This document shows positions 42,489 to 64,000 of a stretch of DNA of 64,000 nucleotides, one piece after another. The stretch is from a virus (lineage: Duplodnaviria > Caudoviricetes): positions 2,725 to 66,724 of the IMG/VR virus record IMGVR_UViG_3300029305_011549. The stretch is one strand, 5' to 3'. Within the stretch, counting starts at the first letter, position 1, and each line of letters begins with the position of its first letter. Made by a program: the position numbers and the translations under genes. The notes under the pieces were generated by a model. It was not told the DNA's origin. It searched no databases and saw nothing but the letters and a program-made list of their open reading frames with translations.

Positions 42489-42490
42489 AA

Positions 42491-42676: not shown

Positions 42677-42721
42677 GGGCGTCGCCCAAATTCTATTAAC
42701 AGAAATGAAAGGAGAACGGTT

Positions 42722-43575: not shown

Positions 43576-43587
43576 AAGGGAGATTTC

Positions 43588-44280: not shown

Positions 44281-44292
44281 GGAGAACAGAAA

Positions 44293-46774: not shown

Positions 46775-46794
46775 TACAGAGAGGAGATGACGGT

Positions 46795-47778
46795 GTGGAT
46801 TTGATTGAAATGGTACAGTCCGCTGATATCGTAGAATACATATCACAGTATGTGGAGCTTGAGCAGCGGGGAGAGGAGTACTGGGGTTTAAGCCCGTTCA
46901 AGGATGAGAGAACGCCGTCATTTTCTGTCCGTGCCGATCCGCCGTTTTTCTACGATTATTCGTCCGGTATCGGAGGAAACATCCATACATTTATCAAGGA
47001 GTATCACGGCGTAACGGGGAAGGAAGCCGCTGAGATTCTCCAAAAATATATCGGGTGTGACGGCGAGACGACAAAGCCGCGTGAGAAAATGACAGCGGCA
47101 ATCGTCAGCCGAAAATTCCAGAAACCAAAGGTGACAACAAAGGTGAACACTTCCGTTGTACTTCCCGATACCGTTATGGAGCGATATGAAAAACGGCAGG
47201 AGATGCTCGATGTCTGGAGAGCAGAAGGGATTTCCGACGCAGCGCTTGATCATTTCAAGGTGTATTACGATGCGTTCTCGAATCGCCTTGTCTATCCGAT
47301 ATATAACATGAACGGACAGATTGTCAACATCGGCGGACGAACACTCGACCCGGATTTCAAGGAAAAGGGTCTTCGAAAATATACGTATTTTTATCCGTGG
47401 GGAAGTATGAATACGGTTTACGGCTTGTATGAAAACATGCAGGCAATTCTTGAGAAAAAAGAGGTTATCGTATTCGAGGGATGCAAGAGCGTTCTGCTTG
47501 CTTATTCTTGGGGCGTGCAGAATACCTGCGCACTTCTGACATCCCATGTCAATCCCAATCAAATGAAATTATTTGCAAGGCTCGGATGCCGTGTGGTTTT
47601 TGCGCTTGACCGCGACGTTGATATTCTCGCAGATAAGCACATTCAAACATTAAAACGATATACAAGAGTGGAGTATTTACATGACACAGAAGGACTGCTC
47701 GGTGAAAAGGATGCACCGGTAGACCGGGGACAGGAGGTGTTCCGGAGATTATATGAAAGCAGACGACGCTATCGCTAA
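46795..47778 (+). CDS. dnaG: DNA primase (zinc-binding region plus TOPRIM)
   Basis: SPFKDERTPSFSV, FGGR-like IGGRT, VFEGCKSV, ALDRD. Confidence 0.85.
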   Translation: MDLIEMVQSADIVEYISQYVELEQRGEEYWGLSPFKDERTPSFSVRADPPFFYDYSSGIGGNIHTFIKEYHGVTGKEAAEILQKYIGCDGETTKPREKMTAAIVSRKFQKPKVTTKVNTSVVLPDTVMERYEKRQEMLDVWRAEGISDAALDHFKVYYDAFSNRLVYPIYNMNGQIVNIGGRTLDPDFKEKGLRKYTYFYPWGSMNTVYGLYENMQAILEKKEVIVFEGCKSVLLAYSWGVQNTCALLTSHVNPNQMKLFARLGCRVVFALDRDVDILADKHIQTLKRYTRVEYLHDTEGLLGEKDAPVDRGQEVFRRLYESRRRYR

Positions 47779-48301
47779 ATTATCAGAAAAGATTTATCGG
47801 GATTTTCTTTTACGATACGATCACTTGCACGATGCGCCCTCTTTGACAAGACGGGCGTTGGCTGATGCCAAAAGACAACAGATATATGTTTCTTCTCGCG
47901 GAGTTAAAACAAGCGCATGGATAGACGCATGGCTTGATCATGCATTGCCTTACTTCAGGTCGTTCAGAGATGGAATGGAAGAGCAGGGTTTTTGGAAAAC
48001 AAAACTCGAACACGCCGAACCTGTAAACAATCATACTTCTCGTAACCAGGCATGGGTCGAGGATGGTTGCGGGGTTCCCGAATGGCTCAAAGACGCTCAT
48101 CAGGAATGGTTAAAAAACCGTGATAAATCATACAACCCATACGATTATGATTACGATCTTGATTCCTGTCCCGCACAAGAGAATTACGGATGCTGTGATA
48201 CGCAGGAAATCGTTTCGGTGACGCATGTTGATGATAATATAGGAGACGACGCACTCGATCTTTTCCTTGCACAGTTCAAAATCACAGCAGAAAAGGAGTG
48301 A
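47753..48301 (+). CDS. Hypothetical protein
   Basis: ORF; C-terminal DALDLFLAQFKI resembles the next ORF's DELDLFYSQFKI and that of 52553. Confidence 0.55.
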   Translation: MKADDAIAKLSEKIYRDFLLRYDHLHDAPSLTRRALADAKRQQIYVSSRGVKTSAWIDAWLDHALPYFRSFRDGMEEQGFWKTKLEHAEPVNNHTSRNQAWVEDGCGVPEWLKDAHQEWLKNRDKSYNPYDYDYDLDSCPAQENYGCCDTQEIVSVTHVDDNIGDDALDLFLAQFKITAEKE

Positions 48302-48302
48302 G

Positions 48303-48554
48303 ATGATGCCGATATCATTTGAGCGCGAATATATGTGTAAATTTCCACCGGAAGACGTCTTCGATTTCAAAATGAATGGGAAAATGTATCGAGGCGTGAT
48401 TACATCTGCAGCATTACACGGGTGTGGTATAGATATTCCTTTGTTTTTGGCAGAAGAAGCGGACGAACCAAGTCATGATACAGAAATCTCCGACGAGCTT
48501 GATCTGTTTTACAGTCAGTTCAAAATCATCAAAGAAAGGGATGGTGCGGTATAG
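48303..48554 (+). CDS. Small hypothetical protein
   Basis: ORF ending DELDLFYSQFKIIKE. Confidence 0.55.
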   Translation: MMPISFEREYMCKFPPEDVFDFKMNGKMYRGVITSAALHGCGIDIPLFLAEEADEPSHDTEISDELDLFYSQFKIIKERDGAV

Positions 48555-48565
48555 GCTCATACATC

Positions 48566-51500
48566 ATGTATCACTGTCATTCAGACTACAGTTTGCTTGA
48601 CAGCTGCACAAAATATCAGGATTATATCGAACTTGCCGTCAGAGATGGCGCAAAGGCGCTGTCGATTTCCGAGCACGGAAAACCCCTGAACTGGACAGAA
48701 AAATGGAACGCATGTAAGCAGGCAGGACTTCGGTATATCCACTCCGTTGAAATATATCTGACGGAAACGCTTGATGAGAAGGTAAGAGACAATTACCATA
48801 CCGTCCTGATGGCGCGAAATATGGACGGTTTGCGGGAATTAAACACACTTGTCACAAAATCCTGCGACAGTGAACATTTCTATTATACCAACCGTATTTC
48901 CTTCGATGAGTTTCTTGCAATGTCAGATAATATCATCTCTACAAGCGCGTGTCTTGCATCGCCTCTGAATAAACTGCCGGATGACCACCCGCGGTATATG
49001 GAGCTTGCGAGGAAATACACCTTTCTGGAGGTACAACCACACGATAATCTGGATCAGATCAGATTTAATATGCGCCTTGCAAAGCTCTCGCAGGAGATCG
49101 GAACGCCGCTGATCGCAGGAACCGATACGCATAGCTCCAATGCTTATAAGGCGGAGTGTAGAAAGGTTTTGCTGTCCTCCAAAAACAAATCATATGGGGA
49201 CGAGGACTCCCTTGATCTGACATATAAAACCTATAGTGAGCTTGTCGCCATGTTTGCAAAGCAGGGCGCACTCTCAAGGGATGCGTATATGCAGGCAATC
49301 GAGAATACGAATCTGCTTTATGATATGACAGAGGAAATCGAACTTGATGTAGGCATCAAGTATCCGATTCTGTACGGAACACGGGAGAGGGACTCCGAGA
49401 TGTTCTCGCAGACCGTAGAGCGGAAGTTCAGAGAAAAGTTGGAGTCCGGCGTGATTCCGAGAGAGCAGGAGAATGCATTCCGCGAGGCAATCGATGAGGA
49501 AATGCGTGTCTTCCGAAAGGTTAAGATGGACGGTTTTATGCTGTCCATGAGTGAGTTTATCACATGGTGTAAGGAAAATGACATCGCCATCGGACCGGCA
49601 AGAGGCTCTGTCGGCGGTTCCAGAGTAGCCTATGTGACGGATATCATTGACTTGAATCCGGAAACATGGCATACGGTTTTCTCGCGCTTTTGCAACGAAG
49701 ACCGGGTTGAAATTGGTAAAAGATATTGCCAGCTCGCACAGCAATGTGCTTGAAAAAGCATCCATTGAATTGCTGGAAACCCCTAAAGACTATGCAGCTA
49801 CAGCGTACTTATGAAAGAAAAAGAAGCGCGAATGCGGCGAAAGCAGAAAAAATGCATAGTATGACATATGGTTAAATCCTAAGTGTTTTTCATGGGCAAT
49901 CAGCAGCCAAGCCTCGAACAGAGGAAGGTTCAACGACTATCCGATAGGAGTAGGGATATTCCCGAAGTAGTGGACTCCCAAAAATGGGATGAAGATATAG
50001 TCTTGTCTCTATTGAAAGATAGAGTGTAACGGATATCGATATAGACTGTGTGGAATCCGATCGCCCCGCAATCTTCAAACACATCATCGATCGGTTCGGA
50101 ACAGAAAAGACAGCACGTGTTGCCTCGTACGGAACGATACAGGCAAAAGGCGTCATTGACGATGTCGGACGGCATCTTGCAAAGCAGTGGAGTGCAGAGC
50201 ATCCCGGAGAAGAAGATAAAAACCCGTGGTCGCTGAAAAACATTGCGGCAATCAAAGAGGAGTACGACAAAGACCCGGAGAAAACAAGCAGAAAATATAC
50301 AGAGCTGTTCTATTATTTCGACGGTCTGAACGATACAAAGGTGTCGCAGTCCGTGCATCCGGCAGGCATGGTCATCAGCCCGATAACGCTGTATGATAAT
50401 TACGGCGTGTTTGATAAAGACGGCGATTTGTGTCTGATGCTGGATATGGAAAATATCCATGATTTCACAGGCCTTGCCAAGTATGACTTTCTTGTTCTGA
50501 AAACAGTACAGGTCATCCGCGATACATGCCGGTATATCGGAATCCCATATCCGAAATCGCACGAAATCGATTGGTTCGATGAAGAGGTATGGGATGATAT
50601 CACAACCGATCCGTCCGGTATCTTCCAGTTTGAGGGTGCATTTGCATTCGATAGCTTAAAGAAATTCCGCCCGAAGAGCATCTTCGATATGTCGATCGTC
50701 ACCGCGTGTATCCGCCCGTCCGGTGCGTCGTACAGAGACGATTTGCTTGCGAGAAAACCGCATTCCAATCCGTCCGCGATCATCGACGAGCTTCTTCGGG
50801 ACAATCTCGGATTAGAAATAGTCCCCTCATGCAGAAATGCATGTTGATAACCCATTGAATTGCTGGGAAATCCTTAGAGCTATGTTACCAAAACGGAGCA
50901 GCGAATAGCTGCAAACGGAAATGGTTTGAAAAAACATGGATTGGGTAATCAGCAGCCAAGCCTCGAATAGAGGAAGGTTCAACGACTATCCCGGAAGGGA
51001 GTAGGACTGAAGCCAGTCCGAAGTGGTGGGTACCCCATGAGGGTAATGATATAGTCTGCGCTTTATCGAAATGATAAAGGGTTTAACCGACGGCGTAGCG
51101 AGCCGTTACGAACAAAACGGATTTAATATATCAGGAGGACACGATTAAATTCCTGCAATTGATTTGCGGCCTGTCCGGAAGTGAATCGGATAATATCCGG
51201 CGTGCAATCGGACGAAAGCAGAAAGAAAGACTTGATGCTGCAATGCCGTCTATTCTGGAGGGGTATTGCGAAAAATCTCCGCAGCCGAGAGAGATTGCGG
51301 AGTCAGAGGCAAAAGAATTCTTACAAATCATTGAGGATAGTGCCTCTTATCAATTTGGTTACAACCATTCAATCGCCTACTGTCTGCTCGGATATCTGTG
51401 CGCATATTACCGCCACTACTATCCGCTCGAATTTATCACATCGTTTCTGAATAACGCGGCAAACGATGACGATATCAAAAACGGAACGGCGTACGCAAAC

Positions 51501-52307
51501 AAAGTCGGCATCAAAATCACAATGCCGAGATGGGGACTTTCCAAAGGAGAATACTTCTTCGACCGCGAACGAAGAATCATCGCAAAAGGTCTTACCTCAA
51601 TCAAGTATATGGGTAAGAACGTCGCGGAAGAACTGTACGATATCGCACATAACACCAAAGCCGAGCGATTTGTCGATGTTCTGTCGGCGCTGAACACATC
51701 GTCGCTTGATACACGTCAGCTCGATATTCTGATCAAGCTTGATTTCTTCTCCGAATTTGGAAATCAGAGAGAGTTGCTCCGGATTACGGAGATGTATACG
51801 GAGCTGTTCCGGTGCGGTGAGGCAAAGAAAATCAGCCGTGATAAGGTGGACGGAACGCCGCTCGAACCGATTGTAACAAAGTACGCAGTCGGTGTTACCA
51901 AGGCTGGCGGTATCGCAAAATCCTATACACTGCTCGATGTGTCATCTATCCTCCGGGAAACCGAGGACGCAATCAAAGCATCCGGCGTTGCCGACCTCAG
52001 CGACCTGACAAAAGTAAGGAACTTTGAAAGCATTATGGGTTACGCAGGATATGTCACAGACCGTGAGGAAGACAGACGAAAGCTGTATGTGCTCAATGTC
52101 TATCCGCTTGTCCGAAAAGCAGACGATAAGCAGTTTGGCTATTCCGTCGTGACAAAGAGTATCGGCTCCGGGAAAGAAAGCCGCTTCACCGTGGTGAACC
52201 GCGTGTACGATACCAATCCAATACATAAAGGCGATATCATTTATTGTAAATCCTATGAAAAAAACGGCCAGTATTACAGACTGACCGGATTTGATAAAAT
52301 CTATTGA
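48566..52307 (+). CDS. dnaE: DNA polymerase III alpha subunit, three exons (48566-49717, 50032-50812, 51121-52307; 1039 aa spliced)
   Basis: PHP motif HCHSDYSLLD, RGSVGGS; splicing restores EIG|DIDID and NLG-Y-LIYQED in frame (1152+781+1187=3120 nt). Confidence 0.92.
49718..50031 (+). mobile_element. Group I self-splicing intron 1 (314 nt, no ORF)
   Basis: Exon ends in U (GGT), intron ends in G; IGS GCCAG; P/Q/R/S elements AATTGCTGGAAA, AATCAGCAGCC, TCAACGACTA, GATATAGTC. Confidence 0.9.
50813..51120 (+). mobile_element. Group I self-splicing intron 2 (308 nt, no ORF)
   Basis: Exon ends in U, terminal G; IGS GTCC; same P/Q/R/S elements as intron 1. Confidence 0.9.
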
Positions 52308-52543
52308 AAGAGGTGATCGATATATTCAAACATAAGATCGAGCTTGTAACCGTCGGCGACATTTATGAGTTTGTCAGCGTAGCGACAAAGGCGTCCGGCA
52401 AGGTTCTGCTCACAGACGAAACAGGGTTCTGCGTCAGCGGCAAAAGCCTGCTCGGTGCGACTGCCGCAATTGAGTGGGATTCGCTCTACTGTCTGTCCGA
52501 GAACGATATTTACACAAGCATTCAGAAATTTTGCGTGGGGTGA
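52304..52543 (+). CDS. HPr-like protein lacking the His15 motif
   Basis: VSGKSLLG aligns with the HPr NAKSIMG (Ser46) motif; no HARP motif. Confidence 0.65.
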   Translation: MKEVIDIFKHKIELVTVGDIYEFVSVATKASGKVLLTDETGFCVSGKSLLGATAAIEWDSLYCLSENDIYTSIQKFCVG

Positions 52544-52552
52544 TGATAGAAA

Positions 52553-53071
52553 ATGAAAGTATTGACAGCAAAAAATCTTGAGGATATCCTTGTCAGGTGT
52601 AATGAAGACCGTAGAATACAGGCATGCATTTATACATCGTGCGAACAAGAAGCAGTTGAACTATCCGAAGCTCTTTTGAGCACACTCCACAGAGGTATGG
52701 TCGTTGCTTATTACGATCCACGCGGATCTGAGCGTTGCGGAAAGATTCGATTCAAAGATGGAGACATCTTTAGACCTCATGAACAAATTCAGATCATCGG
52801 CATTACGAATACGGAACGTGTAAAGGGCGGCGTGTATAATGAAATCTTTGTAACACCCGGTGTTCTTGGAGATCAGCCGGCTTCGGACGAGCAAATATAT
52901 CAGTTTTACTGTCCTATTTGTAAACAAAATATTACGGAGATAACAGTCGATAAAAACAAGCATTGTTTGTCGTTTTCTTCAGCAAAAAACGCTGATTTTG
53001 GAGCAAAAACAGAAGAAATCGACCCGCTTGAAGCGTTTTTGAGCACTTTTCAGATCAAAAAATGTGAATAA
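52553..53071 (+). CDS. Hypothetical protein
   Basis: ORF in run. Confidence 0.55.
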   Translation: MKVLTAKNLEDILVRCNEDRRIQACIYTSCEQEAVELSEALLSTLHRGMVVAYYDPRGSERCGKIRFKDGDIFRPHEQIQIIGITNTERVKGGVYNEIFVTPGVLGDQPASDEQIYQFYCPICKQNITEITVDKNKHCLSFSSAKNADFGAKTEEIDPLEAFLSTFQIKKCE

Positions 53072-53106
53072 AAGTATAGTTTCATACACATAGGAGGACT
53101 ACAAAA

Positions 53107-53316
53107 ATGAACCAGAAAGCATGCAGGTGTAATAAGTGCGGACGCGAGATGCAGGTGTTTGATCTGCACAACAATTTCTCAATACATAAAACAATCGGGT
53201 ATGGAAGCGTACACGATGGGGACGAGCTTCATATCGCGTTCTGCTGTGACTGTATGGATGAGATCATTTCATCCTGTGTTATCTCCCCGATTTCCGAAAA
53301 AACATGGAGGGCGTAA
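53107..53316 (+). CDS. Small zinc-binding protein
   Basis: CNKC...CCDC. Confidence 0.6.
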   Translation: MNQKACRCNKCGREMQVFDLHNNFSIHKTIGYGSVHDGDELHIAFCCDCMDEIISSCVISPISEKTWRA

Positions 53317-53322
53317 ATACAT

Positions 53323-53964
53323 ATGGAAGCAATCAACCGTGAGATTACAAATCTCGATGTGGATGTCATCATCGCCGATGAATGCGAGTGTGTGAAGCAC
53401 GCGCATGTATACGGCCTTGAAAACAGCATTCGCCGTGCAAAATTCCCGATGTCGGTGGATACCGATACATTAAACAGTACCCTGACGCTCGGCATCTCAT
53501 CTCTTGCAAGAAGTCACGCAGGGGAGGGACACGACCAGTGGCTGACAGGTGTTATCGTACAGTTCGACCTGACATTTTCCAATAAGGTATGGGTAGAGGC
53601 GGAGCGGTATCACTTCTTTGACTTCATCAGCTCACAGAGTACCATGCACCGTATCGCAAAGTTTGATTTCGATCAGACCTATAACGAATACGTTGACGGC
53701 CGGATTGTCGAAATCATGAAGGAAAAGCTGGATGCGTACAACAACGAAACAGATGAGGATATGCGCCGTGAGATGTATCTCGGTCTGCTGTACAGCAACC
53801 CCGCAGGCTGCATGATCACAGCGGGTATGACCACCAACTACAGACAGCTCAAAACAATTTACCACCAGCGCAAAAACCACAGACTTCCGGAATGGCGAGC
53901 TTTCTGCCGTTGGATTGAATCGCTTCCGTACAGCGATCTGATTACAGGAGAACCGATCGAATGA
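53323..53964 (+). CDS. ThyX/Thy1-like protein
   Basis: GHDQWL..V.VQFDL...E.ERYHF...SQST...TNYRQL..IY.QR..HRLPEW. Confidence 0.55.
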   Translation: MEAINREITNLDVDVIIADECECVKHAHVYGLENSIRRAKFPMSVDTDTLNSTLTLGISSLARSHAGEGHDQWLTGVIVQFDLTFSNKVWVEAERYHFFDFISSQSTMHRIAKFDFDQTYNEYVDGRIVEIMKEKLDAYNNETDEDMRREMYLGLLYSNPAGCMITAGMTTNYRQLKTIYHQRKNHRLPEWRAFCRWIESLPYSDLITGEPIE

Positions 53965-54494
53965 AAGTAATTCTGATATCAGGCAAGGCAAGACACGGCA
54001 AGGATACAGCGGCTGAAATCCTTGAGCGGCACTTAAAGAACGCAGGATACCGTGTTCTTGTCGCACATTACGCAGATTTACTGAAGTATATCTGCAAGAC
54101 GTTCTTCGGGTGGGACGGAAATAAGGATGAGTCCGGACGTAATCTTCTGCAGACAGTCGGAACAAACACCATCAGAAAAGTTCGCCCGGATTATTGGGCG
54201 GACTTCATCGCAGATGTCCTTTCGTTCTTTCCGGATGCATGGGATTATGTGCTGATTCCGGACTGCCGATTCCCGAATGAAGTCGAGCGCATGAAGGATA
54301 AGATCGCAGATACAACGCTCGTCCGCGTTGTCCGTCATAACTTTGACTCCGGACTCACAGAGGAGCAGTTAAACCACCCGTCCGAAACGGCACTGGACGA
54401 TTATCCTGCGGATCAGTATTTTGATAACGACGGAACGGTAGAGGCACTCGAAAACAAAATCAAAACATGGATTGGAGAAATTACATATGAATAA
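53961..54494 (+). CDS. Deoxynucleoside monophosphate kinase
   Basis: ISGKARHGKDT, LLQTVGT, IPDCRFPNE, HPSE. Confidence 0.8.
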   Translation: MKVILISGKARHGKDTAAEILERHLKNAGYRVLVAHYADLLKYICKTFFGWDGNKDESGRNLLQTVGTNTIRKVRPDYWADFIADVLSFFPDAWDYVLIPDCRFPNEVERMKDKIADTTLVRVVRHNFDSGLTEEQLNHPSETALDDYPADQYFDNDGTVEALENKIKTWIGEITYE

Positions 54495-55125
54495 GGAAAA
54501 GAATTTATATAACATCGATATCGACCTCGGCGAAATTCTGGAGGAAACCTCCAATGTTGATGATTATTTCTATATTCAGGATCTGAAGCAGAGAAAGCTT
54601 TATCTGAATACGGATATCGACCAGTTTGCCGTCGCCGGTGTCGTAAGACATATCCTGCAAATCAACCGAGAGGACAAGGAACTTCCGGTTGAGCAGAGAG
54701 CCCCGATTATTCTGTATGTCGCCTCCAACGGCGGCGAGGCAAACTCCGGTTTTGAGCTGATCGATGTTATCGCAGCAAGCAAGACTCCTGTTTATACCGT
54801 CAATCTCGGGTATCAATTCAGTATGGGCTTTCTGATCGGACTCGCAGGACATAAGCGGTTTGCCATGAAGAATGCGAAGTTCTTGATGCACGACGGTTCC
54901 AATTTCGTGTATAACTCCGGCACAAAGGCACAGGATCAGATGGAATTCTATCGCCGTGCCGAGGAAAGAATCAGACAGTATGTCATCGAGCATAGCCGTC
55001 TGACCGAGGAAGAATACGACAATAAGCTCCGCGTAGAATGGTATCTGTTCGCGGACGAAGCAAAGGAGAAGGGCTTTGTCGATGCCATCATCGGCGTTGA
55101 CTGCGACATCGATGAGATCATTTGA
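54487..55125 (+). CDS. clpP: ClpP-like protease subunit
   Basis: LYVASNGGE, FSMGFLI (catalytic Ser), FLMHD, EAKEKGFVD. Confidence 0.8.
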   Translation: MNKEKNLYNIDIDLGEILEETSNVDDYFYIQDLKQRKLYLNTDIDQFAVAGVVRHILQINREDKELPVEQRAPIILYVASNGGEANSGFELIDVIAASKTPVYTVNLGYQFSMGFLIGLAGHKRFAMKNAKFLMHDGSNFVYNSGTKAQDQMEFYRRAEERIRQYVIEHSRLTEEEYDNKLRVEWYLFADEAKEKGFVDAIIGVDCDIDEII

Positions 55126-55138
55126 GGAGGACTCTGCA

Positions 55139-55966
55139 ATGACAGAATATCTTGGATATAAAGAGGTTGTACCAACCGATGAGGAACTTGGTGTGATATA
55201 CGGCAAAACGCCGGAAAACATTTATAACTGCCACCAGAATGAATATCTGATTCTCAGAGACGCAGAGGAAAATGTGATTGAGACATTCCGCTGCTCGGAT
55301 AATCAGTATACGAAGGTTGGTTATAAGACCGTGAACAGCCGGTTTCTCGGAAGGGTAAAGCCGCGAAATATCCATCAGCGACTTGCTATGGATATGCTGT
55401 ACAGACCGGATATCACCGTAAAGATCATCACCGGTAAGTTCGGTACCGGCAAGGACTTCCTTATGTGTTCGGCAGCGGTTGATATGATCGAGGGAGGAAA
55501 GTTCGACCGTATTGTATATGTAAGAAATAACATTGAGGTAAAGAACTCCAAGCCGATCGGGTTCCTGCCCGGCTCGTATAACGAAAAACTGCTTCCGTTT
55601 GCAATGCCGCTCGCCGACCATCTCGGCGGCGTGGACGGCTTGAACCTGATGGTGAGCAGCGGGAAAATCGACATCGTGCATCTCGGATTTATCCGCGGAC
55701 GTGATATCAAGAATTCGATCATCATCTGCTCGGAAGCAGAGAATATGACAAAGGAGCATGTGCAGCTTTTGCTCGGACGTGTCGGGGAGGGTTCCGAGCT
55801 GTGGCTGAACGGTGACTTCAGACAGTGCGACGCAGAGGTTTTCCGCTCCAACAGCGGACTTATGACAGCGGTGGAACGCCTCAAGGGACATCCGCGATTC
55901 GGCTATGTCAACCTGCAGATCACAGAAAGGAGCGAAACTGCCGCTATGGCAGACTTACTCGATTGA
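55139..55966 (+). CDS. phoH: PhoH family ATPase
   Basis: GKFGTGKD, IRGRDI, EAENMT, LNGDFRQCD, RSE. Confidence 0.88.
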   Translation: MTEYLGYKEVVPTDEELGVIYGKTPENIYNCHQNEYLILRDAEENVIETFRCSDNQYTKVGYKTVNSRFLGRVKPRNIHQRLAMDMLYRPDITVKIITGKFGTGKDFLMCSAAVDMIEGGKFDRIVYVRNNIEVKNSKPIGFLPGSYNEKLLPFAMPLADHLGGVDGLNLMVSSGKIDIVHLGFIRGRDIKNSIIICSEAENMTKEHVQLLLGRVGEGSELWLNGDFRQCDAEVFRSNSGLMTAVERLKGHPRFGYVNLQITERSETAAMADLLD

Positions 55967-55973
55967 ATCACTC

Positions 55974-57464
55974 ATGAAAGAATTATTCGTAGATAATTTT
56001 GCCGGAGGCGGAGGTGCATCAACCGGCATTGAAACTGCGATCGGAAGAAGTGTTGATATTGCAATCAATCATGACCCCGATGCTATAGCAATGCACAAAG
56101 TCAATCATCCCGGTACAAGGCATTACTGTGAGGATGTATGGGAGGTTGATCCTGTAGAAGCATGCGGCGGCAATCCGGTAGCTCTCGCTTGGTTTTCGCC
56201 TGACTGCAGGCATTTTTCCAGAGCCAAGGGTGGTAAACCTGTTGATAAAAACATCCGTGGACTTGCGTGGGTTTCGGTTCGCTGGGCGTATCTTGTCAGA
56301 CCGAGATGCATCATGCTTGAAAATGTGCCTGAAATACAGACATGGGGTCCGCTCGACAAAAACAGCAAACCAATCAAGGAGCGGATCGGAGAAACATTTG
56401 ATGGGTTTATCAAATGCCTGTCTACAGGTATTCCGAGCAGTCATCCGGCATTCAAAGAAATGTGTGTTTCACTTGGTATCGAGCAGGATTCCGAGATGGC
56501 ATACGCATTGCAGTGCGGTCTTGGATATCATATCGAATACCGTGTACTTCGTTCATGTGATTACGGTGCACCGACAACACGGACAAGATTCTATATGATT
56601 GCAAGGTGTGACGGCAAGCCGGTCGTATGGCCGGTACCGACACACGGAGATAAGTATAGCAAAGAAGTCAGAATGGGACTCAGAGAGCCATACAGAACTG
56701 CGGCAGACTGTATTGACTGGAGTATTCCGGCACAAAGTATTTTTGAAAGGGAAAAGCCGCTTGCAGACAATACGCTTCGCAGGATCGCAATGGGAATCAA
56801 ACGGTTTGTTATCGATAATCAGGAGCCGTTTATCCTCCATTACAAATTTGACAATCAACCGGAAAGTGTAGAGAAGCCGCTTTCAACCGTAACCGCTGTC
56901 AACAGTCATTATATCGTAGCACCAAGCCTGATTCAGTATCACAGTGAGACATCAGACAATGAAGTGAGAGGTCAGGAGCTTACCGATCCGATTATGACCA
57001 TCGATACGAGTCCAAGATACGCATTATCTGTTGCATATCTAATGAAGAAATACGCCGGGATTGAAACAAATAATGAGTCGATCATAGACGAACACGATTA
57101 TAAGGATGAGGTACAGGCTTTTCTTGTGAAGTATTTTTCAAACGGCATCGCAAAATCCGTGAATGAACCGCTTGATACTGTAACAACAAAGGACAGATTT
57201 GCGCTTGTTACGATACATGGCGAGAAGTATATCATCTCAGATATAAAAATGCGTATGCTCCAGCCAAGAGAATTGTTTAACGCACAGGGCTTCCCGCAGG
57301 ATTATATTATTGATACTGATATGAATGGCAATCCGATAGCTAAAACCAAACAGATTGCACGATGCGGAAACGCAGTAACGCCTCCTGTACCGGCAGCTCT
57401 GGTTCGTGCAAATCTTCCGGAGTACTGCACGGATGTAAATGAGGCGATGAAGAAAGGAGCATAA
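55974..57464 (+). CDS. Orphan C5-cytosine DNA methyltransferase
   Basis: DNFAGGGGAS, FSPDC, LENV, R.R, GNAV. Confidence 0.88.
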   Translation: MKELFVDNFAGGGGASTGIETAIGRSVDIAINHDPDAIAMHKVNHPGTRHYCEDVWEVDPVEACGGNPVALAWFSPDCRHFSRAKGGKPVDKNIRGLAWVSVRWAYLVRPRCIMLENVPEIQTWGPLDKNSKPIKERIGETFDGFIKCLSTGIPSSHPAFKEMCVSLGIEQDSEMAYALQCGLGYHIEYRVLRSCDYGAPTTRTRFYMIARCDGKPVVWPVPTHGDKYSKEVRMGLREPYRTAADCIDWSIPAQSIFEREKPLADNTLRRIAMGIKRFVIDNQEPFILHYKFDNQPESVEKPLSTVTAVNSHYIVAPSLIQYHSETSDNEVRGQELTDPIMTIDTSPRYALSVAYLMKKYAGIETNNESIIDEHDYKDEVQAFLVKYFSNGIAKSVNEPLDTVTTKDRFALVTIHGEKYIISDIKMRMLQPRELFNAQGFPQDYIIDTDMNGNPIAKTKQIARCGNAVTPPVPAALVRANLPEYCTDVNEAMKKGA

Positions 57465-58027
57465 TGAAACAACTAACCATACTTATAGATATGGACGATA
57501 CCATTGAAAACTTCTGCGAAACTTTGGTAGAAGTTCTCAATGAGCGCCATGGATTGAAAGTAAAAACAGATGACATCAGGGAGTGGGATCTGACAAAGGC
57601 ATTTCCGTCGTTGGCACCGCGTGATATTTTCGCACCGACGTATGAGGAGGATTTCTGGAAGAGGGTAAAACCTCTTCCGGGTGCCGTTGATTGTCTTCGT
57701 CGTATGACGGATGACGGGCATAGCGTTGTCATCGTGACATCCTCCGCTCCGGAAAGTGTCCCGCTGAAAATTAAGCTGTGTCTGCGCAGATATTTTCCTT
57801 TTATTAAACGAGAAAATATCATTATCGCCTCCAGAAAACAGTTGATCAAAGGTGATATCATGATCGATGACGCTCCGCACAATCTGATCGGCGGTGACTA
57901 TCTGCGTGTGTTAATGCAGGCAAATCACAATCGGGATTATGACGCCGCATCTAACAGCATGGTGCGTGTTGTCGACTGGGAGGGCGCGTATCAGATTGTG
58001 AAGATGTACGCAGATATTTTAGATTAA
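57464..58027 (+). CDS. 5'(3')-deoxyribonucleotidase (HAD family)
   Basis: IDMDDT, MIDDAPHN. Confidence 0.85.
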   Translation: MKQLTILIDMDDTIENFCETLVEVLNERHGLKVKTDDIREWDLTKAFPSLAPRDIFAPTYEEDFWKRVKPLPGAVDCLRRMTDDGHSVVIVTSSAPESVPLKIKLCLRRYFPFIKRENIIIASRKQLIKGDIMIDDAPHNLIGGDYLRVLMQANHNRDYDAASNSMVRVVDWEGAYQIVKMYADILD

Positions 58028-58065
58028 ACGTATGCAGATATCAAAGAATAAATGGAGGTTGAGAA

Positions 58066-58293
58066 ATGAACAAAGAAATCATTTTATATTCAACCGGATG
58101 CATTCGATGCAAGACGCTGAAAAAGCGGCTTGACGAATCCGGCATTACATACAGAGAAGTCAACGACGTCGAGCAGATGCTGGCACTTGGTTTTACACAG
58201 GTTCCTGTGCTTGTCGCAGACGGGGAACAAATGGATTATTATAAGGCAGTAAAATGGATTGATACAATGGAGGGAACAAATGAAAAGCAGTAA
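58066..58293 (+). CDS. nrdH: NrdH/glutaredoxin
   Basis: YSTGCIRC, QVPV. Confidence 0.85.
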   Translation: MNKEIILYSTGCIRCKTLKKRLDESGITYREVNDVEQMLALGFTQVPVLVADGEQMDYYKAVKWIDTMEGTNEKQ

Positions 58294-60058
58294 GAGTATT
58301 GTTGAGGACTACCTGAAGCAGGACGACTGGAGAGTCAAGGAAAACTCAAATAACCCGTTCAGTTATGGCGGTATGAATAAGTATATCAACGGAGAAGTAT
58401 GCAAGGACTATTGGCTGCGGGAAATTTATAATGAAGATATCGCACAGGCATATGTCCAGAATTATATCCACATTCATGACCTCGGCGGTTTGACGCTGTA
58501 TTGCTGCGGTTATTCGCTGCGCGATATTCTGACAAAGGGCGTTGTCGGTGTGGATAATATTCCGACATCCTCTCCAGCAAAGCACTTCGACAGCGCACTT
58601 AACCAGATTTCCAATCTTCTGACAGTTTTCCAGAATGAGATTATGGGTGCGGTTGCACTGAACAGCTTCGATACACTCCTCGCGCCGTTCATCAAGAACG
58701 ACCGTCTGGATTACGATGCGGTCAAGCAGTCGATGCAGAACTTCATTTTCTCTATCAACTCCAACAGCAGAATGGGTGCGGAACCGGCATTCAGCAATAT
58801 CACATTCGATTTAACCCCGCCGAGCGACCTGATCGATGATTATGTTCTGATTGGCGGTGAGTTGCAGAGCTTTACATACCGCTCCTGCCAGAGAGAGATG
58901 GACATGCTGAATAAAGCGTTCTTTGAGACAATGCTGGAGGGCGACGCTGCAGGCAAGCTGTTTGCTTATCCGATTCCTACTTATAATATTCATAAGAGAT
59001 TCGACTGGGATAACCCAAACAATAAGCTCCTGTGGGAGCTGACCGGCAAGTTCGGTACACCGTACTTTGCAAACTACATCAGCTCCGATATGAATCCGGA
59101 GGACGCAAGAAGCATGTGCTGCAGACTCCGTCTCGACCTAACCGAGCTTCGCAAGAGAAACGGAGGCCTGTTCGGCAGCGGCGACAGCACAGGTTCCATC
59201 GGTGTTGTTACCATCAACCTGCCGAGAATCGCATATGAAAATAAGGGCGACCGCGCAGGATTCTTTGCAATGCTGGATTACTATCTGGGTATCGCCAAGG
59301 ACAGCCTTGTCATCAAGCGTGCATGGCTTCAGGAAAATATCATTGATACCAATGCAATCAAAGCGTACAACGAATATGTCGGTACCATGGACAACCATTT
59401 CTCGACCATCGGTATTGTCGGTATGAATGAAATGTGTGAGAATTTCTTTGACGACCATGCGGGAATTCTCACAGAAAAAGGAAAGGCGTTCTCGGAGGAG
59501 GTCGGCGAGTATATCAGAAACACGCTGCTTCGCTTCCAGGAAGAAACAGGGAATCTTTTCAATTACGAGGCAACGCCGGCAGAATCCACTTGCTATCGCT
59601 TTGCGCTCAACGATAAGAAGACACATCCGGATATCATCACACAGGGAAGCGGCAAGGACTGCTACTATACCAACAGCTGTCATATCCCCGTAAAGGATAT
59701 TCAGGGCATCGACAGTACCTTCCGTCATCAGGAGACGCTGCAGTCGCAGTTTACAGGCGGTACTGTCATCCATCTGATGATGGAGGGCGCGATTTCCGGC
59801 GATCAGGCAAAGGATATCATTCGTTCCGCGTTTGAAAACTATACCATTCCATATGTCAGTATCTCCCCGATTTCCAGATTCTGTCCCGAACACGGTTATG
59901 TTTACGACCATGTAGATAAGTGTCCGATCTGTAAGGAGAAGCTGAAGAAATACCAGAGAATTACAGGCTATCTGCGCTGCATTGATAACTTCAACCGAGG
60001 CAAGAAAGCCGAATTCCATGACAGAAAGCAGATGATGTATGAAGATAAAGAGAATTGA
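58280..60058 (+). CDS. nrdD: Anaerobic (class III) ribonucleotide reductase
   Basis: HIHDL, LYCC, SMCCRL, EATPAES, C-terminal RITGYL glycyl-radical motif. Confidence 0.92.
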   Translation: MKSSKSIVEDYLKQDDWRVKENSNNPFSYGGMNKYINGEVCKDYWLREIYNEDIAQAYVQNYIHIHDLGGLTLYCCGYSLRDILTKGVVGVDNIPTSSPAKHFDSALNQISNLLTVFQNEIMGAVALNSFDTLLAPFIKNDRLDYDAVKQSMQNFIFSINSNSRMGAEPAFSNITFDLTPPSDLIDDYVLIGGELQSFTYRSCQREMDMLNKAFFETMLEGDAAGKLFAYPIPTYNIHKRFDWDNPNNKLLWELTGKFGTPYFANYISSDMNPEDARSMCCRLRLDLTELRKRNGGLFGSGDSTGSIGVVTINLPRIAYENKGDRAGFFAMLDYYLGIAKDSLVIKRAWLQENIIDTNAIKAYNEYVGTMDNHFSTIGIVGMNEMCENFFDDHAGILTEKGKAFSEEVGEYIRNTLLRFQEETGNLFNYEATPAESTCYRFALNDKKTHPDIITQGSGKDCYYTNSCHIPVKDIQGIDSTFRHQETLQSQFTGGTVIHLMMEGAISGDQAKDIIRSAFENYTIPYVSISPISRFCPEHGYVYDHVDKCPICKEKLKKYQRITGYLRCIDNFNRGKKAEFHDRKQMMYEDKEN

Positions 60059-60524
60059 GGACGAGAATTTCAACCACTACAGACGTCCGTCGATGGTGGT
60101 AGCGTTCCCAAGCTGTACCTTCAAATGCAACCGTGCGTGCGGTGAGCAAGTGTGCCAGAACGGCGCACTTGCAGCCTCACCCGATATTGAGATTACACCG
60201 GAGGAAATCGTTCATAGATATCTTCATAATCATATCTCAAAGGCGATTGTGTGTGCAGGCTTGGAGCCGCTTGACAGCCCGGACGATCTGCTTGCGCTTG
60301 TCAGAGCCGTGCGGATGCGTACAGACGCCGAGATTATCATATATACAGGCTACACAAAGGAAGAGGTGCAGGGGATGAACGGAATACTGGACGCATTGAG
60401 CATGTACTCAAATATGATTGTTAAGTACGGAAGATATATCCCAGGATGCGAGACGCATATGGACGAGATTCTTGGAGTCCCTCTGTATGGGGATCATCAA
60501 TATGCGGAGGTGATCAGTAAATGA
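60039..60524 (+). CDS. nrdG: NrdG-like activating protein (radical SAM)
   Basis: CTFKC...CQN, GLEP, IYTGY, IVKYGRY. Confidence 0.75.
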   Translation: MKIKRIEDENFNHYRRPSMVVAFPSCTFKCNRACGEQVCQNGALAASPDIEITPEEIVHRYLHNHISKAIVCAGLEPLDSPDDLLALVRAVRMRTDAEIIIYTGYTKEEVQGMNGILDALSMYSNMIVKYGRYIPGCETHMDEILGVPLYGDHQYAEVISK

Positions 60525-61111
60525 CAGCAGGAACACATAATACGTTTGTCACACTTGGTGCATCCAACCACTCTCAAAACCAAAGAGAACAGTTTGATTA
60601 TTACGCAACCGACCCTGTAGCAATGGAGCTACTTCTTGATATTGAGCAGTTCTCGGAAAATGTATGGGAATGTGCCTGCGGTGCAGGGCATTTAAGCCGT
60701 GTTCTGGAAGAACGCGGGTATAACGTCAGATCAACCGATCTTGTAGATCGAGGGTATGGTGAGAGCGGTCTTGATTTTCTTGACTGCAAAGATACATATG
60801 ACGGTGATATCATAACAAACCCTCCGTATAAATACGCAAAGGAGTTTGTTGAGCGGGCAATCGAGTGTGTAACAGACGGACACCGTGTTGCGATGTTTCT
60901 GAAGATTCAATTTCTGGAAGGAAAAGGCAGACGGGCATTGTTCGATAAGTATCCGCCAAAAATAATTTATGTAGCAACCGGCAGAATCAACTGCTGCAAA
61001 AACGGTGATTTTAGCTCAAGACAGAGAAGCAATGACAGCGCACAGGCGTATGCATGGTTTATATGGGAAAAGGGCTATACGGGCGATACTGTTGTAAGAT
61101 GGTTTAACTGA
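60521..61111 (+). CDS. Orphan N6-adenine DNA methyltransferase
   Basis: DYYAT, ECACGAGH, ITNPPY, YAWFIW. Confidence 0.8.
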   Translation: MTAGTHNTFVTLGASNHSQNQREQFDYYATDPVAMELLLDIEQFSENVWECACGAGHLSRVLEERGYNVRSTDLVDRGYGESGLDFLDCKDTYDGDIITNPPYKYAKEFVERAIECVTDGHRVAMFLKIQFLEGKGRRALFDKYPPKIIYVATGRINCCKNGDFSSRQRSNDSAQAYAWFIWEKGYTGDTVVRWFN

Positions 61112-61122
61112 AAGGAAGCAAA

Positions 61123-61308
61123 ATGACAATCATACAAAATCAGGATTTGGCATACGCCAAAGAGATCAGAAAGAAACTGAAAGAGAATAACGGGTACTGC
61201 CCGTGCAGTATCGTAAAGAATGAGGACACAAAATGTATGTGCAAAGAGTTCCGTGAGATGGACGAGGGTATGTGTCATTGCGGACTCTATATCAAAATCA
61301 AAGATTAA
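61123..61308 (+). CDS. Ferredoxin-thioredoxin reductase catalytic-subunit-like small protein
   Basis: GYCPC...CMC...CHCGLY. Confidence 0.75.
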   Translation: MTIIQNQDLAYAKEIRKKLKENNGYCPCSIVKNEDTKCMCKEFREMDEGMCHCGLYIKIKD

Positions 61309-61319
61309 GGAGATAAGGT

Positions 61320-61757
61320 ATGACTGTGAAAATTAAGAAGCTTAACGAAGATGCTGTGATCCCTACATACGGCTCCGCAGAAGCCGCAGGATGCGATTTG
61401 TACGCACTCCTTGACACAGATGAGGTAGTGATTCATCCGGGCAGTACGGCGCTTGTACACACCGGAATCAGCGTTGAAATCCCGCACGGATGCTACGGCG
61501 GTATCTACGCAAGAAGCGGTCTTGCCTCCAAGAAAGGATTGCGTCCGGCGAACTGTACCGGTGTCATTGACGCAGACTACCGCGGTGAAATCATGGTGGC
61601 ATTACATAACGATTCTTCAAACATTCAAACGATTTCCAACCATGAAAGAATCGCGCAGATGATTATCGAAAGATACGAAAAGGCTGAGTTCCTCATCGTT
61701 GATGACCTTGTCGAAACAGAAAGAGGAGAGGGCGGCTTCGGAAGCACCGGGAAGTGA
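61320..61757 (+). CDS. dut: Trimeric dUTPase
   Basis: AGCDL, RSGL, GVIDADYRGE, RIAQ, RGEGGFGSTG. Confidence 0.95.
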   Translation: MTVKIKKLNEDAVIPTYGSAEAAGCDLYALLDTDEVVIHPGSTALVHTGISVEIPHGCYGGIYARSGLASKKGLRPANCTGVIDADYRGEIMVALHNDSSNIQTISNHERIAQMIIERYEKAEFLIVDDLVETERGEGGFGSTGK

Positions 61758-61810
61758 TTAAATTCTATATGATTGGTAATAATTATTGTAATAAGTATGG
61801 AGGTGTATAT

Positions 61811-61957
61811 ATGGAAGTTCGAAGATTTGATCTGAGTGGCAAAACCCTTACAAAGGATGATCTTGCAAGAGTCAGGATACCTGAGGATATCGTAGTTCTT
61901 TATAATAAGATTATCGATCGTGTCGCAGATTATAAAAACAGCGGTATACGAAATTGA
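61811..61957 (+). CDS. Small 48-aa protein upstream of the integrase
   Basis: RBS GGAGG; MEVRRFDLSGK... Confidence 0.5.
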   Translation: MEVRRFDLSGKTLTKDDLARVRIPEDIVVLYNKIIDRVADYKNSGIRN

Positions 61958-61982
61958 AAAGTTTGGTAAACAAACAGAAAGT

Positions 61983-62012
61983 CTTGATTTGTTCATATAA
62001 ACGTGTTATAAT
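61983..62012 (+). promoter_or_regulatory. Probable integrase promoter TTGATT-N18-TATAAT with extended TG
   Basis: Direct match upstream of 62066. Confidence 0.55.
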
Positions 62013-62065
62013 GGTCTCGTACAGCATTGTGCGAGACCATTTTAGGCAAGTATAAAGGAGGAAGT

Positions 62066-63487
62066 ATGGCGCGAAGATCGAAAATGGCTAAGGTCTCTCA
62101 TGATGCAGAGAACGAGAAAACAAATATTGCACTGTATATCAGAGTATCTACTGACGCACAAGTAGACGGATATTCTATTGATGTGCAGAAGGAAAGACTG
62201 GAAGCGTATGTAAAGTCTATGTTCAGCGAACCGGACACTGTAACAATGTATATCGACGGAGGATTTACGGGAGCGAATCTTGACAGACCGAGAATGAAAG
62301 ACATGATAGCAGATATCCAGAATGGATTGATTACGCATGTTATTGTCATGAAGCTCGATAGACTCAGCCGTTCTCAAAGAGACACGCTATATCTTATTGA
62401 GGATGTATTCACTCCGAACAATGTCTCTTTTATCTCTATTAATGAAAGCTTCAATACTTCGACATCTTTCGGAAGAACCGCAATATCTATCTTGAGTGCA
62501 TTTGCACAAATGGAGCGCGAAACCATATACGAGAGAACAAGAAGCGGTATGAGAAAGAGAGTTGAGGATGGTTATTGGCCTGGCGGAGGAATGACGCCAT
62601 TCGGATATGATTACGATCAAAACATTGGTTATTTAGTTCCAAACAAAGATGCCGATACGGTGAAGCATATGTATGAACTTTTTCTTTCTGGATATTCAGA
62701 AGGGATGATTGCGAAGAAATTTAATATAAAGTACGACCGACTTGTTCATCAGATCTTAACCAGAAAAAGCAATACAGGAGTTATTGTTTATAATGGGGAA
62801 GAATACCCCGGTAGACATGCTCCAATTATATCCCTTGATATATATAATAAAACAATGAAAATCATGAAAGAAAGATCGTCGAAGAAATTTGTAGCAAAAA
62901 CAAAGCATCTTTTAACAGGTCTTTTTGAATGTGGTATCTGCGGAGCAAAAATGAGATACCAAACATGGACAAACGGAACACATAAGATCATGTGTTACTC
63001 ACAGCAGACATCGAAAGCATATTTAAGGAAGTCAACATGCTGCGATAATCTAAAAATTGACTCACAACTTATAGAGAATGCTGTTTTGAATGATATTTTC
63101 TCTATGACAGACGAGATATCCGAAATTGATCATGAGGCTGGAGAAAAAGAGAAGAAAGGGGTATTGGATGTTTTAACAGAGCAGAAGACAATCGCTGAAA
63201 ATAAACTGAAGAGACTGTATAACCTATTTGCAGGAAGTTCTGATGATTGTCTTCTTGATACAATCAATGAGATTAGAGCAGAGATAGACACCCTGAATAA
63301 GAGTATCAACGAGGAAGTGGAAAAGAATAATAGATTTGCAGAGGCGATATCGACACAACAACAATTCAGGGGGCTAAGAGACGTTTGGGATATAATGACA
63401 AATGAAGAGCGCATATCAGCCATTCGCGCACTTATTGAAAAGATTGTGATTAATAAGGAAAAAATCGATATAGTTTACAAAGTATAA
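62066..63487 (+). CDS. Large serine recombinase (integrase)
   Basis: YIRVST catalytic Ser, SGANxDRP-like TGANLDRP, KLDRLSR, recombinase domain, CGICG...C zinc ribbon, coiled coil. Confidence 0.95.
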   Translation: MARRSKMAKVSHDAENEKTNIALYIRVSTDAQVDGYSIDVQKERLEAYVKSMFSEPDTVTMYIDGGFTGANLDRPRMKDMIADIQNGLITHVIVMKLDRLSRSQRDTLYLIEDVFTPNNVSFISINESFNTSTSFGRTAISILSAFAQMERETIYERTRSGMRKRVEDGYWPGGGMTPFGYDYDQNIGYLVPNKDADTVKHMYELFLSGYSEGMIAKKFNIKYDRLVHQILTRKSNTGVIVYNGEEYPGRHAPIISLDIYNKTMKIMKERSSKKFVAKTKHLLTGLFECGICGAKMRYQTWTNGTHKIMCYSQQTSKAYLRKSTCCDNLKIDSQLIENAVLNDIFSMTDEISEIDHEAGEKEKKGVLDVLTEQKTIAENKLKRLYNLFAGSSDDCLLDTINEIRAEIDTLNKSINEEVEKNNRFAEAISTQQQFRGLRDVWDIMTNEERISAIRALIEKIVINKEKIDIVYKV

Positions 63488-63526
63488 AAATTTCGACATA
63501 TGATAGTCATTCCGATGATCATCGGC
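63488..63526 (+). other. Putative att junction inside sigG
   Basis: AAA ATT TCG ACA TAT G (K-I-S-T-Y, mimicking KFSTYA) lies out of frame with downstream ATT CCG ATG ATC ATC GGC; dyads ATGA-TAG-TCAT (63500-63510) and CCGATGATCATCGG (63512-63525). Confidence 0.6.
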
Positions 63527-64000
63527 GAGATTCGCAGGTATCTGAGGGATAACAACAGCATCCGCGTCAGCCGCGGAACGAGAGATCTTGCCTATCGTGC
63601 ATTGCAAACGCGGGACCGGCTGACAAAGGAACACGGTCGGGAAGCAACTGTTGAGGAGGTTGCCGCCGTCCTCGGAGAATCCCCTGTACAGGTCAGTCGG
63701 GCGATGGAAGCGATCATCGAGCCGATCTCTCTGTATGAACCGGTTTACTCCGACGGTGTGGATTCTGTATACGTGATGGATCAGATCAGCGACAGCGAGA
63801 ATTCCGATGATGTGTGGCTGGAAAACATTGCGCTGCGTGAAGCGATGAAATCGCTTGGCGAGCGGGAACGCCGCATCATTGCACTTCGTTTTTTTGCCAA
63901 CAAAACGCAGATGGAAATTGCCGAACAGATCGGCATCTCGCAGGCGCAGGTATCGCGTCTGGAAAAAGGTGCACTTGCACGGATTCGCCGTCAGATGTGA
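63500..64000 (+). pseudogene. sigG: 3' part of sporulation sigma factor sigma-G (N-terminus and most of region 2 missing)
   Basis: PMIIGEIRRYLRDNNSIRVSR...SLYEPVYSDG.D..YVMDQISD...KTQMEIAEQIGISQAQVSRLEKGAL matches SigG; no RBS before 63500; GC clearly higher than the integrase gene. Confidence 0.85.

Follow-up and report, generated by a model that had tools for sequence, protein, structure and literature searches.

The integrase gene and the truncated sigG gene

The window analyzed here comprises the final 64,000 bases of the 66,724-bp virus record IMGVR_UViG_3300029305_011549, whose left-hand 2,724 bp lie outside it. At its right end a large serine integrase gene is followed, after 24 bp, by the 3' part of sigG (63512-64000), the gene of the late forespore sigma factor, which acts in the developing spore itself. 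The two genes mark one end of a temperate phage, with at least 66 kb on record, that has integrated into the sigG gene on the chromosome of a Clostridia species, uncultured and from gut or rumen. The sigG stop codon (TGA, 63998-64000) ends on the final base of the virus record. The coordinates of the features are collected in Table 1.

Table 1. Features of the window discussed in the text
Feature	Position	Strand	Remarks
Phage DNA	1..63511	+	replication and nucleotide-metabolism half of a large temperate phage
Group I intron	49708-50024		86 bits
Group I intron	50803-51079		71 bits
Sigma-F-type -10 match GGnnAnAnT, GGTAATAAT	61775..61783	+	36 nt before the small open reading frame
48-aa open reading frame, candidate recombination directionality factor	61811..61957	+	directly upstream of the integrase
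Predicted sigma-A-type promoter of the integrase	61984..62012	+	TTGATT, 17 nt, TATAAT, upstream TG
7-bp inverted repeat GGTCTCG...CGAGACC, integrase leader	62013..62038	+	read from the sequence
Large serine integrase, 473 aa	62066..63487	+	Pfam PF00239, PF07508, PF13408
P half-site of attR	63488..63511	+	distal motif TTTCGAC at 63491-63497
Inferred crossover dinucleotide CC	63512..63513	+	set by analogy with relatives
Host 3' part of sigG, codons 98-260 and stop	63512..64000	+	SigG equivalog match, last 163 codons; 63512-63997 encode the final 162 residues

Based on Pfam searches, the integrase carries the Resolvase domain (PF00239) at residues 22-170 (E 2.9e-35), the Recombinase domain (PF07508) at residues 194-270 and the Zn_ribbon_recom domain (PF13408) at residues 282-344, and its catalytic-serine motif reads YIRVSTD. 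The N-terminal domain resembled that of the TP901-1 integrase (E 7e-34), and residues 160-469 aligned with the C-terminal domain of the A118 integrase (E 5e-8). Three features of a large serine recombinase are present: the catalytic domain, the Recombinase domain plus zinc ribbon, and the att-site geometry (imperfect dyad symmetry about a non-palindromic central dinucleotide, with a distal motif nearer to the centre in attB than in attP), the last being seen for this phage in the DNA of the P arm only. The predicted promoter of the integrase shows 10 of 12 consensus matches, the highest number in the region, as judged by consensus match only.

The reading frame at 63488-63997 matched the NCBIfam SigG equivalog model NF006071 with 236 bits over model positions 94-256 of 258, compared with 184 bits for SigF, 50 for SigE and 46 for SigK; the SigG score falls under the whole-protein cut-off only because 93 model positions are missing. 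The fragment is 94% identical at the protein level to its best intact relative, the 260-aa SigG P0002, and the intact 260-aa SigG proteins of close relatives show between 90 and 94% identity with it. Its ratio of nonsynonymous to synonymous substitution rates (dN/dS) against relatives is 0.02-0.06. At the junction the guanine plus cytosine (GC) content rises: it is 0.34-0.40 over the integrase region and 0.52-0.56 over the piece of sigG. A first-pass annotation of this DNA, made from its letters and reading frames, had described a truncated sigG directly after the integrase stop at 63487, and the domain and SigG family matches bear this out. It had placed the beginning of the gene at the motif FSTYA(V/I)PMIIGE. 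The gene is indeed truncated within this motif, but sigG homology begins only at the CC of 63512-63513, the proline codon of VPMIIGE, and the preceding ATG-ATA-GTC-ATT (the ATG at 63500 and three codons) is phage DNA.

The same annotation took the junction for an att site and pointed to an out-of-frame K-I-S-T-Y mimic next to it. The mimic exists: TCGACATATG at 63493-63502 repeats the host TCCACATATG (S-T-Y codons), 4 nt farther from the core. The distal motif is located 14 nt from the CC in the P arm (TTTCGAC in the window, TTTTCAAC in the related element L196) and 10 nt from it in the host B arm (TGTCCAC or TTTTCAAC, S-T codons). Serine integrases are known to read one zinc-ribbon motif in both sites, about 5 bp nearer to the centre in attB, and in a Listeria phage integrase the shift is 5 bp (PMC3783163). 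The 4-bp inward shift of the distal motif in attB fits this zinc-ribbon-motif model, and K-I-S-T-Y is the shifted integrase-binding motif of the phage half-site, not a coding relic. The att-site assignment gains further from L196, where attL and attR together reconstitute an attP forming a perfect inverted repeat of 23 bp centred on the CC. This dinucleotide lies inside the overlap of sigG homology in six of six element pairs examined. In the phage of the window attL and attR share a longer overlap, CCGATGATCATC(G), and its P' arm copies the host palindrome; the CC is therefore assigned as the crossover of this phage by analogy with its relatives. The palindrome itself, CCGATGATCATCGG (63512-63525, encoding PMIIG), is perfect over 14 bp and was found by a pattern search once in the window, where 0.06 occurrences are expected; the repeat finder run on the junction returned no repeat at the site. 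In the closest relatives with an intact sigG (L169-L171), attB reads CCGATGATTATCGG, and a synonymous C-to-T change disrupts the palindrome that the P' arm of this phage copies.

The P arm of the window (...AGTCATT-CC-GATGA) has counterparts in L196 (...GTTCATT-CC-AATGA), in L200 and in the human-gut record MT839977.1 (...TATCATT-CC-GATGA). The last was the top match in the phage collection; it is another attR junction, and no free attP was found there. A diverged phage (L168), whose integrase is 71% identical, has a 30-nt junction, TCGACATATGATAGTCATT plus core, that is identical to that of the window. Since synonymous sites between the two integrase genes are saturated, the identity of the junction indicates that this half-site is under constraint. 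The saturation affects the phage and the host sides both, and so the comparison has no bearing on phage-host co-divergence.

Insertion of the phage at the native sigG locus

A contig of another sample (L081) was 99.9% identical to the window over 3,783 bp including the junction, and its sequence goes on for 233 bp after the sigG stop, across a hairpin resembling a terminator and into a gene in convergent orientation. The identical junction is also present in contigs of JGI 3300029705, JGI 3300032167 and ENA ERZ27248351. The identical 166-aa product of the sigG frame was recorded on a 10.5-kb contig of a third sample and on a short contig of a fourth, and the identical integrase on a contig of a fifth. 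In the 10.5-kb contig the sigG piece is followed by a 300-aa gene, an alpha/beta hydrolase gene, a 160-aa gene and an FGGY kinase gene, so that host genes do continue beyond position 64000, a point that the first-pass annotation had left to be checked. When L081 was compared with intact sigG loci (L162, L169-L171), homology ran from TTCCGATG through the stop codon into the next gene with 78-80% identity. The host synteny and the homology past the stop codon together identify the 3' half as host DNA. L081 and the window differ in three amino acids at positions that are invariant in SigG. The nucleotide differences, four in number, are all N-to-G and were treated as sequencing error, and relaxed selection on the split gene was for this reason rejected.

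A metagenome scan with the 3' fragment gave, among the matches listed, relatives of at most 68% identity. A scan of a genome collection gave 80 loci, all with an intact sigG and with no integrase nearby; since the best of them was 72% identical, the host species is not in the collection scanned.

A search with the first 97 residues of the closest intact SigG retrieved the other end of the insertion, a 108-aa protein (P0121) with 94% identity. It ends in ...QLSTYAVPMII followed by VSREEY and a stop. On its 31.9-kb contig it is preceded by NUDIX, ComEC and 2,409-aa GH94 genes and followed by phage-type genes (GH25 lysozyme, a 1,093-aa Metallophos metallophosphoesterase, DUF6558 and a protein of more than 1,000 aa). 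P0121 is also present in sample 3300029705, which holds the identical integrase, and a sister protein, P0241, ends in ...PMII and then ISREEK...; it too is flanked by host genes on one side and phage genes on the other. The 5' half of sigG that had been predicted for the opposite boundary is thus found, and its reading frame agrees with that of the 3' half in the window, attL being known here as a protein and gene lengths. The prediction that sigE would stand upstream failed, as the neighbour is the GH94 gene of about 2,400 aa. In the uninterrupted locus of a close relative (L169) the order is GH94 (2,395 aa), sigG, a 299-aa gene, abhydrolase, a 160-aa gene and FGGY; the left flank of attL and the right flank of attR joined together equal this locus, which demonstrates a simple insertion at the native site of sigG. 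The attL site consists of host codons 1-97 plus PMII, a few phage-encoded residues and a stop, and attR of the P arm, the CC and codons 98-260. As long as the phage is integrated, the cell is left without an intact sigG, and the phage supplies no replacement.

A degenerate attL pattern gave no match in viral contigs. Since no attL-proximal gene matches an open reading frame (ORF) of the record by size, the prophage must be larger than 66.2 kb, and its total size probably exceeds 76 kb. The start of the record is not the other prophage end: no sigG was found in its first 540 bp, and no 11-mer is common to these and the last 700 bp. Record bases 1-180, to the left of the window, hold three perfect or near-perfect, GC-rich copies of a 60-nt tandem repeat, and it is likely because of this repeat that the assembly stopped inside the phage. 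The end of the record at the sigG stop most probably reflects a provirus trimmed at a gene boundary. The 166-aa product was also recorded on a 77,450-bp contig, which we infer to be the parent of the virus record.

Other SigG fragments were encountered in the searches. A 161-aa fragment (P0009) was considered as an insertion and rejected as a scaffold-gap artefact. A 107-aa 5' fragment ending in ...FSTYAVPMN (P0183; L164-L167) occurs on 12 contigs of different samples, followed by ordinary-looking host genes (Ddl, peptidase U32, an LRR protein), with no obvious element between the halves. Many further fragments of 98-109 aa stop at the same codon on contigs of 130-240 kb.

Split sigG genes in related elements and possible routes to an intact gene

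Homologues of the integrase were sought in 401 species genomes from the order of one sigG-bearing relative. Full-length homologues with 40-49% identity were found in 20 of them, adjoining a sigG half in 13 of the 20. Six genomes were examined further. In five, the two sigG halves share a contig and a strand and are separated by 6.4 to 17.1 kb, and there is no second sigG, the next best match being a 40%-identical SigF-like gene; in the sixth the halves are on different contigs. Joining the halves at the CC in silico gave a full-length SigG for five of the six elements. The exception is the 17.1-kb element (L197), whose 3' half leaves the SigG sequence after ...EIGIS, in the region-4 recognition helix, the match ending at residue 244, so that the half has either a frameshift or a second break there.

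Four species (L194, L195, L198, L199) have in common a syntenic element of 6.4 kb that holds metabolic cargo and lacks phage genes. Judged from translations, its cargo includes a 400-aa conserved protein, a 4Fe-4S ferredoxin-like protein, a protein of about 650-700 aa and a pair of 82-aa and 238-aa proteins resembling ThiS/ThiF. Pairwise synonymous divergence (dS) among the four species is 0.33-0.60 for the element genes and 0.33-0.63 for the sigG halves, similar values that fit inheritance of the element from a common ancestor. The dN/dS values lie at 0.008-0.10 for both sigG halves, compared with 0.12-0.26 for the integrase. Five split genomes retain intact SpoVAD, Gpr and SpoIVA; SpoVAD and Gpr are forespore functions that depend on sigma-G. 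On this comparative evidence, sigG is functional in these lineages while it is split in the inherited DNA. Selection on the split gene in the relatives argues for rejoining of its halves.

The 48-aa ORF just upstream of the integrase of the window has counterparts of 41-62 aa in other loci. An N-terminal M-x-[VI]-x-R-x-[VI]-N-G-K-like motif is shared by 14 loci of the integrase clade, and a gene of 45-62 aa is called at the same place on three related contigs. The ORF is missing in six clade members that lie next to a terminase-like gene and have no sigG half within 1.5 kb. Searches of Pfam, PHROGs and the protein Atlas gave no usable relative of it. By its position, and by analogy with sprB and CD1234, the ORF is a candidate recombination directionality factor. 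The sequence GGnnAnAnT occurs 27-51 nt before the start of the small ORF in seven of eleven lineages, the window included; its background frequency is 0.00089 per nt, so that about 0.03 occurrences are expected per locus in a 30-nt interval. In six loci GTYTR is found exactly 15 nt upstream of this box, with variable spacer sequences.

In the account that we favour, and to which we assign an even balance of belief, the phage that splits sigG at its native locus would be excised in the forespore and carried through the spore. Precise excision between attL and attR would rebuild sigG. The integrase would be produced from its own sigma-A-type promoter, and excision would also require the 48-aa protein. 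Transcripts of the small gene would come in lytic growth from read-through along the long rightward operon of the phage, and in the young forespore from the sigma-F-type promoter. Once the phage had left sigG in the forespore, sigma-G could be made; the circular phage would stay enclosed in the spore and, at germination, the integrase alone would re-insert it. Excision in the germ line was one of two options offered by the first-pass annotation and is favoured on indirect support, from purifying selection on the split halves of relatives and from the candidate directionality-factor gene with its sigma-F-type -10 box. A broader claim, that this is a programmed and reversible germ-line rearrangement in which sigma-F drives excision, the circle rests in the spore, re-insertion follows at germination and phage carriage is coupled to sporulation, and that a widespread family of 6-17-kb elements of gut Clostridia uses it as well, is put forward as a serious but tentative possibility.

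Several points weigh against this account. A phage that spreads by infection need not permit its host to sporulate. Among the assembled sequences searched, neither attB nor attP nor a circular junction of this phage turned up, and no intact sigG allele more than 94% identical was found for this host. The attL and attR sites never occur on one contig, and attL is known only as a protein and gene lengths. Known directionality factors include no detectable relative of the small ORF, whose role is read from position and conservation. The box GGnnAnAnT is of the sigma-F -10 type described in Bacillus subtilis, and the window has no convincing -35 box, the GTYTR-N15 arrangement of the six relatives being absent. 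Finally, the purifying selection was seen in small non-phage elements of other species, not in the host of this phage.

The strongest alternative, although we consider it rather unlikely, is plain disruptive lysogeny. The PMIIG palindrome would be targeted only for its conservation, lysogens deprived of sigma-G could not complete spores, and sigG would come back only on induction or loss of the phage, with no developmental programme. Every recorded copy of the sigG allele of this host is split, the best intact protein being 94% identical, and the -35 element of the relatives is lacking in the window. The phage looks fully active, with replication genes, tRNAs and self-splicing introns, and possible development-interfering genes are present, namely a protein made of the Spo0A C-terminal domain only and an extracytoplasmic function (ECF) sigma/anti-sigma pair. 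However, the small ORF and the sigma-F-type -10 box are kept here as in the co-diverged elements with a functional split gene, and the 3' half of sigG shows no decay, the two lysogen alleles differing only by the four N-to-G changes.

Stochastic excision without compartment control seems improbable, more so than plain disruption. A fraction of the vegetative or pre-divisional cells would excise the phage by means of a directionality factor made in small amounts or in response to stress, only these cells would sporulate, the spores would be mostly cured and the phage would persist by reinfection, of which it is capable. Serine integrase systems excise whenever the directionality factor is present, and occasional excision independent of CD1234 has been described for the skin element of Clostridioides difficile (PMC5025042). 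This explanation gives no reason for a forespore-type -10 box, nor can it account for the way in which the 6.4-kb relatives, which are not phages, have persisted by vertical descent in four species.

Two further possibilities are very remote. In one, the second option of the first-pass annotation, the 3' piece of sigG would be phage-borne and would repair the host gene upon integration. Gene-targeting integrases are often accompanied by a copy of the end that they displace, and in the record the sigG piece comes directly after the integrase and at the very end. The option is nevertheless refuted by the host-like GC content and host synteny of the 3' half, with host genes following on the 10.5-kb contig, by homology to intact loci from the CC past the stop into the next host gene, and by an attL that encodes a truncated 108-aa protein with its own stop. 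In the other, the two sigG halves would act as separate polypeptides that assemble on RNA polymerase with no rejoining of the DNA. Two-subunit sigma factors such as SigO-RsoA do exist, and both halves are under purifying selection in relatives, but the break lies within a conserved helix of region 2, FSTYAVPMIIGEIRRY, no ribosome-binding site precedes the ATG at 63500 and the cognate integrase is conserved next to the junction. An assembly chimera at 63488-63512, a danger of metagenomic data that the abrupt change of composition brings to mind and that the first-pass annotation had set as a test at 63488-63510, is excluded for practical purposes, since the same junction was found in five or more independent metagenome samples, and a diverged version of it in further ones.

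Phage gene content and comparison with known systems

PHROGs and Pfam searches identified in the window genes for DnaB helicase, primase, DNA polymerase III alpha, NrdD/NrdG, dUTPase and an anti-repressor, together with an RNA-repair cassette and genes for NAD salvage. No structural genes lie in the window; these are on the attL contig, where lysis and tail-like genes follow the 5' half of sigG. The DNA polymerase III alpha gene (48566-52307, +) is made of three pieces split by the two group I introns of Table 1, and six tRNA genes are located at 1829-1916, 11502-11828 and 42602-42676. The genes for RNA repair, tRNA maintenance and NAD salvage are within 20290-22548, 32616-33515, 35264-37640 and 12831-15881. 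They comprise a 752-aa Pnkp-like kinase/phosphatase/RNA ligase and a Thg1-like tRNA-His guanylyltransferase, two nucleotidyltransferases, one of the CCA-adding type, and a salvage set of PRPP synthetase, NAMPT and NAD synthetase.

The only leftward genes of the window form one block. An ORF at 8905-9309 (-) encodes 134 aa that correspond to the C-terminal, DNA-binding domain of Spo0A alone (Pfam E 1.4e-14), with the receiver domain absent and weak similarity to solved Spo0A domains (E 1e-3); this protein could interfere with the host decision to sporulate. Adjoining it at 9799-11041 (-), a 187-aa ECF-type sigma factor gene overlaps that of a 228-aa DUF4367 protein, by appearance its anti-sigma partner. 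At 5915-8166 (+) the phage encodes a reverse transcriptase (RVT_1, E 6e-22) and, after it, an ATPase (phrog_2376), which together may form a pair of the defence type. The abiF RNA family is matched at 28120-28156 (+) with 39.6 bits, slightly above the gathering score of 37. The 320-aa protein encoded at 41526-42488 (+) has an MrpR-type N-terminal core-binding domain (E 5e-13) and could represent a further recombinase, one of the tyrosine type that perhaps resolves multimers.

To our knowledge, the split sporulation genes described so far (sigK, spsM, gerE, spoVFB and spoVR) all act in the mother cell, and the accepted explanation is that rearranging the genome of this terminal cell costs nothing. 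A split sigG breaks this logic. Of the traits of sporulation intervening elements, insertion inside a coding sequence and a recombinase at the junction are found here, and a target acting in the mother cell is not. If lysogeny abolishes sporulation in common gut or rumen Clostridia, transmission between hosts would be affected; if instead the forespore account is true, this would be a reversible DNA rearrangement in the bacterial cell that founds the next generation. Full-size, apparently active phages use the sigG site, not only small remnants, and the window offers parts that can be tested, namely the integrase with defined att half-sites and the 48-aa candidate directionality factor with its promoter. 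The literature searched contained no report of a split sigG (spoIIIG), and a 2026 review gives only skin and SPbeta for sporulation.

The nearest parallel in architecture is SPbeta in spsM of B. subtilis (SprA, SprB), likewise a large active temperate phage with group I introns and nucleotide-metabolism genes, with a large serine integrase at one end, a small gene directly upstream of it, and insertion inside a sporulation gene at a symmetric sequence (PMC4191935, PMC5499854). In both, excision would serve the lytic cycle as well as gene reconstitution. The differences concern the compartment and the proteins. SPbeta survives in the forespore copy because spsM acts in the mother cell, whose DNA is discarded, whereas the gene split here acts in the forespore. 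The integrase belongs to another clade, closer to the TP901-1 and A118 types, and no similarity between the candidate directionality factor and known ones was detectable.

The skin elements in sigK of B. subtilis (SpoIVCA) and C. difficile (CD1231 and CD1234) also split a sporulation sigma gene with a large serine recombinase beside the junction, and the relatives of the present element reduced to 6-17 kb resemble them in this respect too. In C. difficile the recombinase CD1231 is made from a sigma-A promoter, and the 72-aa CD1234, from a compartment-specific promoter, sets the place and time of excision (PMC5025042). The layout of the window is similar, with a sigma-A-type promoter for the integrase and a putative compartment-type promoter for the small factor, here pointing to the forespore. 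Unlike skin, the target is sigG rather than sigK, and the element is a full phage, not a remnant. As the required compartment is the forespore, which is the germ line, excision is no dead end, and the element must be carried along or put back.

The behaviour that the forespore account needs is known from active lysogeny, as in phi10403S in comK of Listeria monocytogenes and SpyCIM1 in mutL of Streptococcus pyogenes, where excision takes place in the surviving cell line and is followed by episomal maintenance and later re-integration (PMC13492144; PMC5025042). Those elements respond to growth phase or the phagosome, not to a sigma cascade or sporulation; for the phage of the window such behaviour is a proposal. 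The SigF/SigG-like sigma factors of Bacillus phages (cited in PMC13492144) offer another association of a phage with a forespore sigma sequence. In that case the phage carries a complete gene, whereas here the sequence is host DNA cut by integration.

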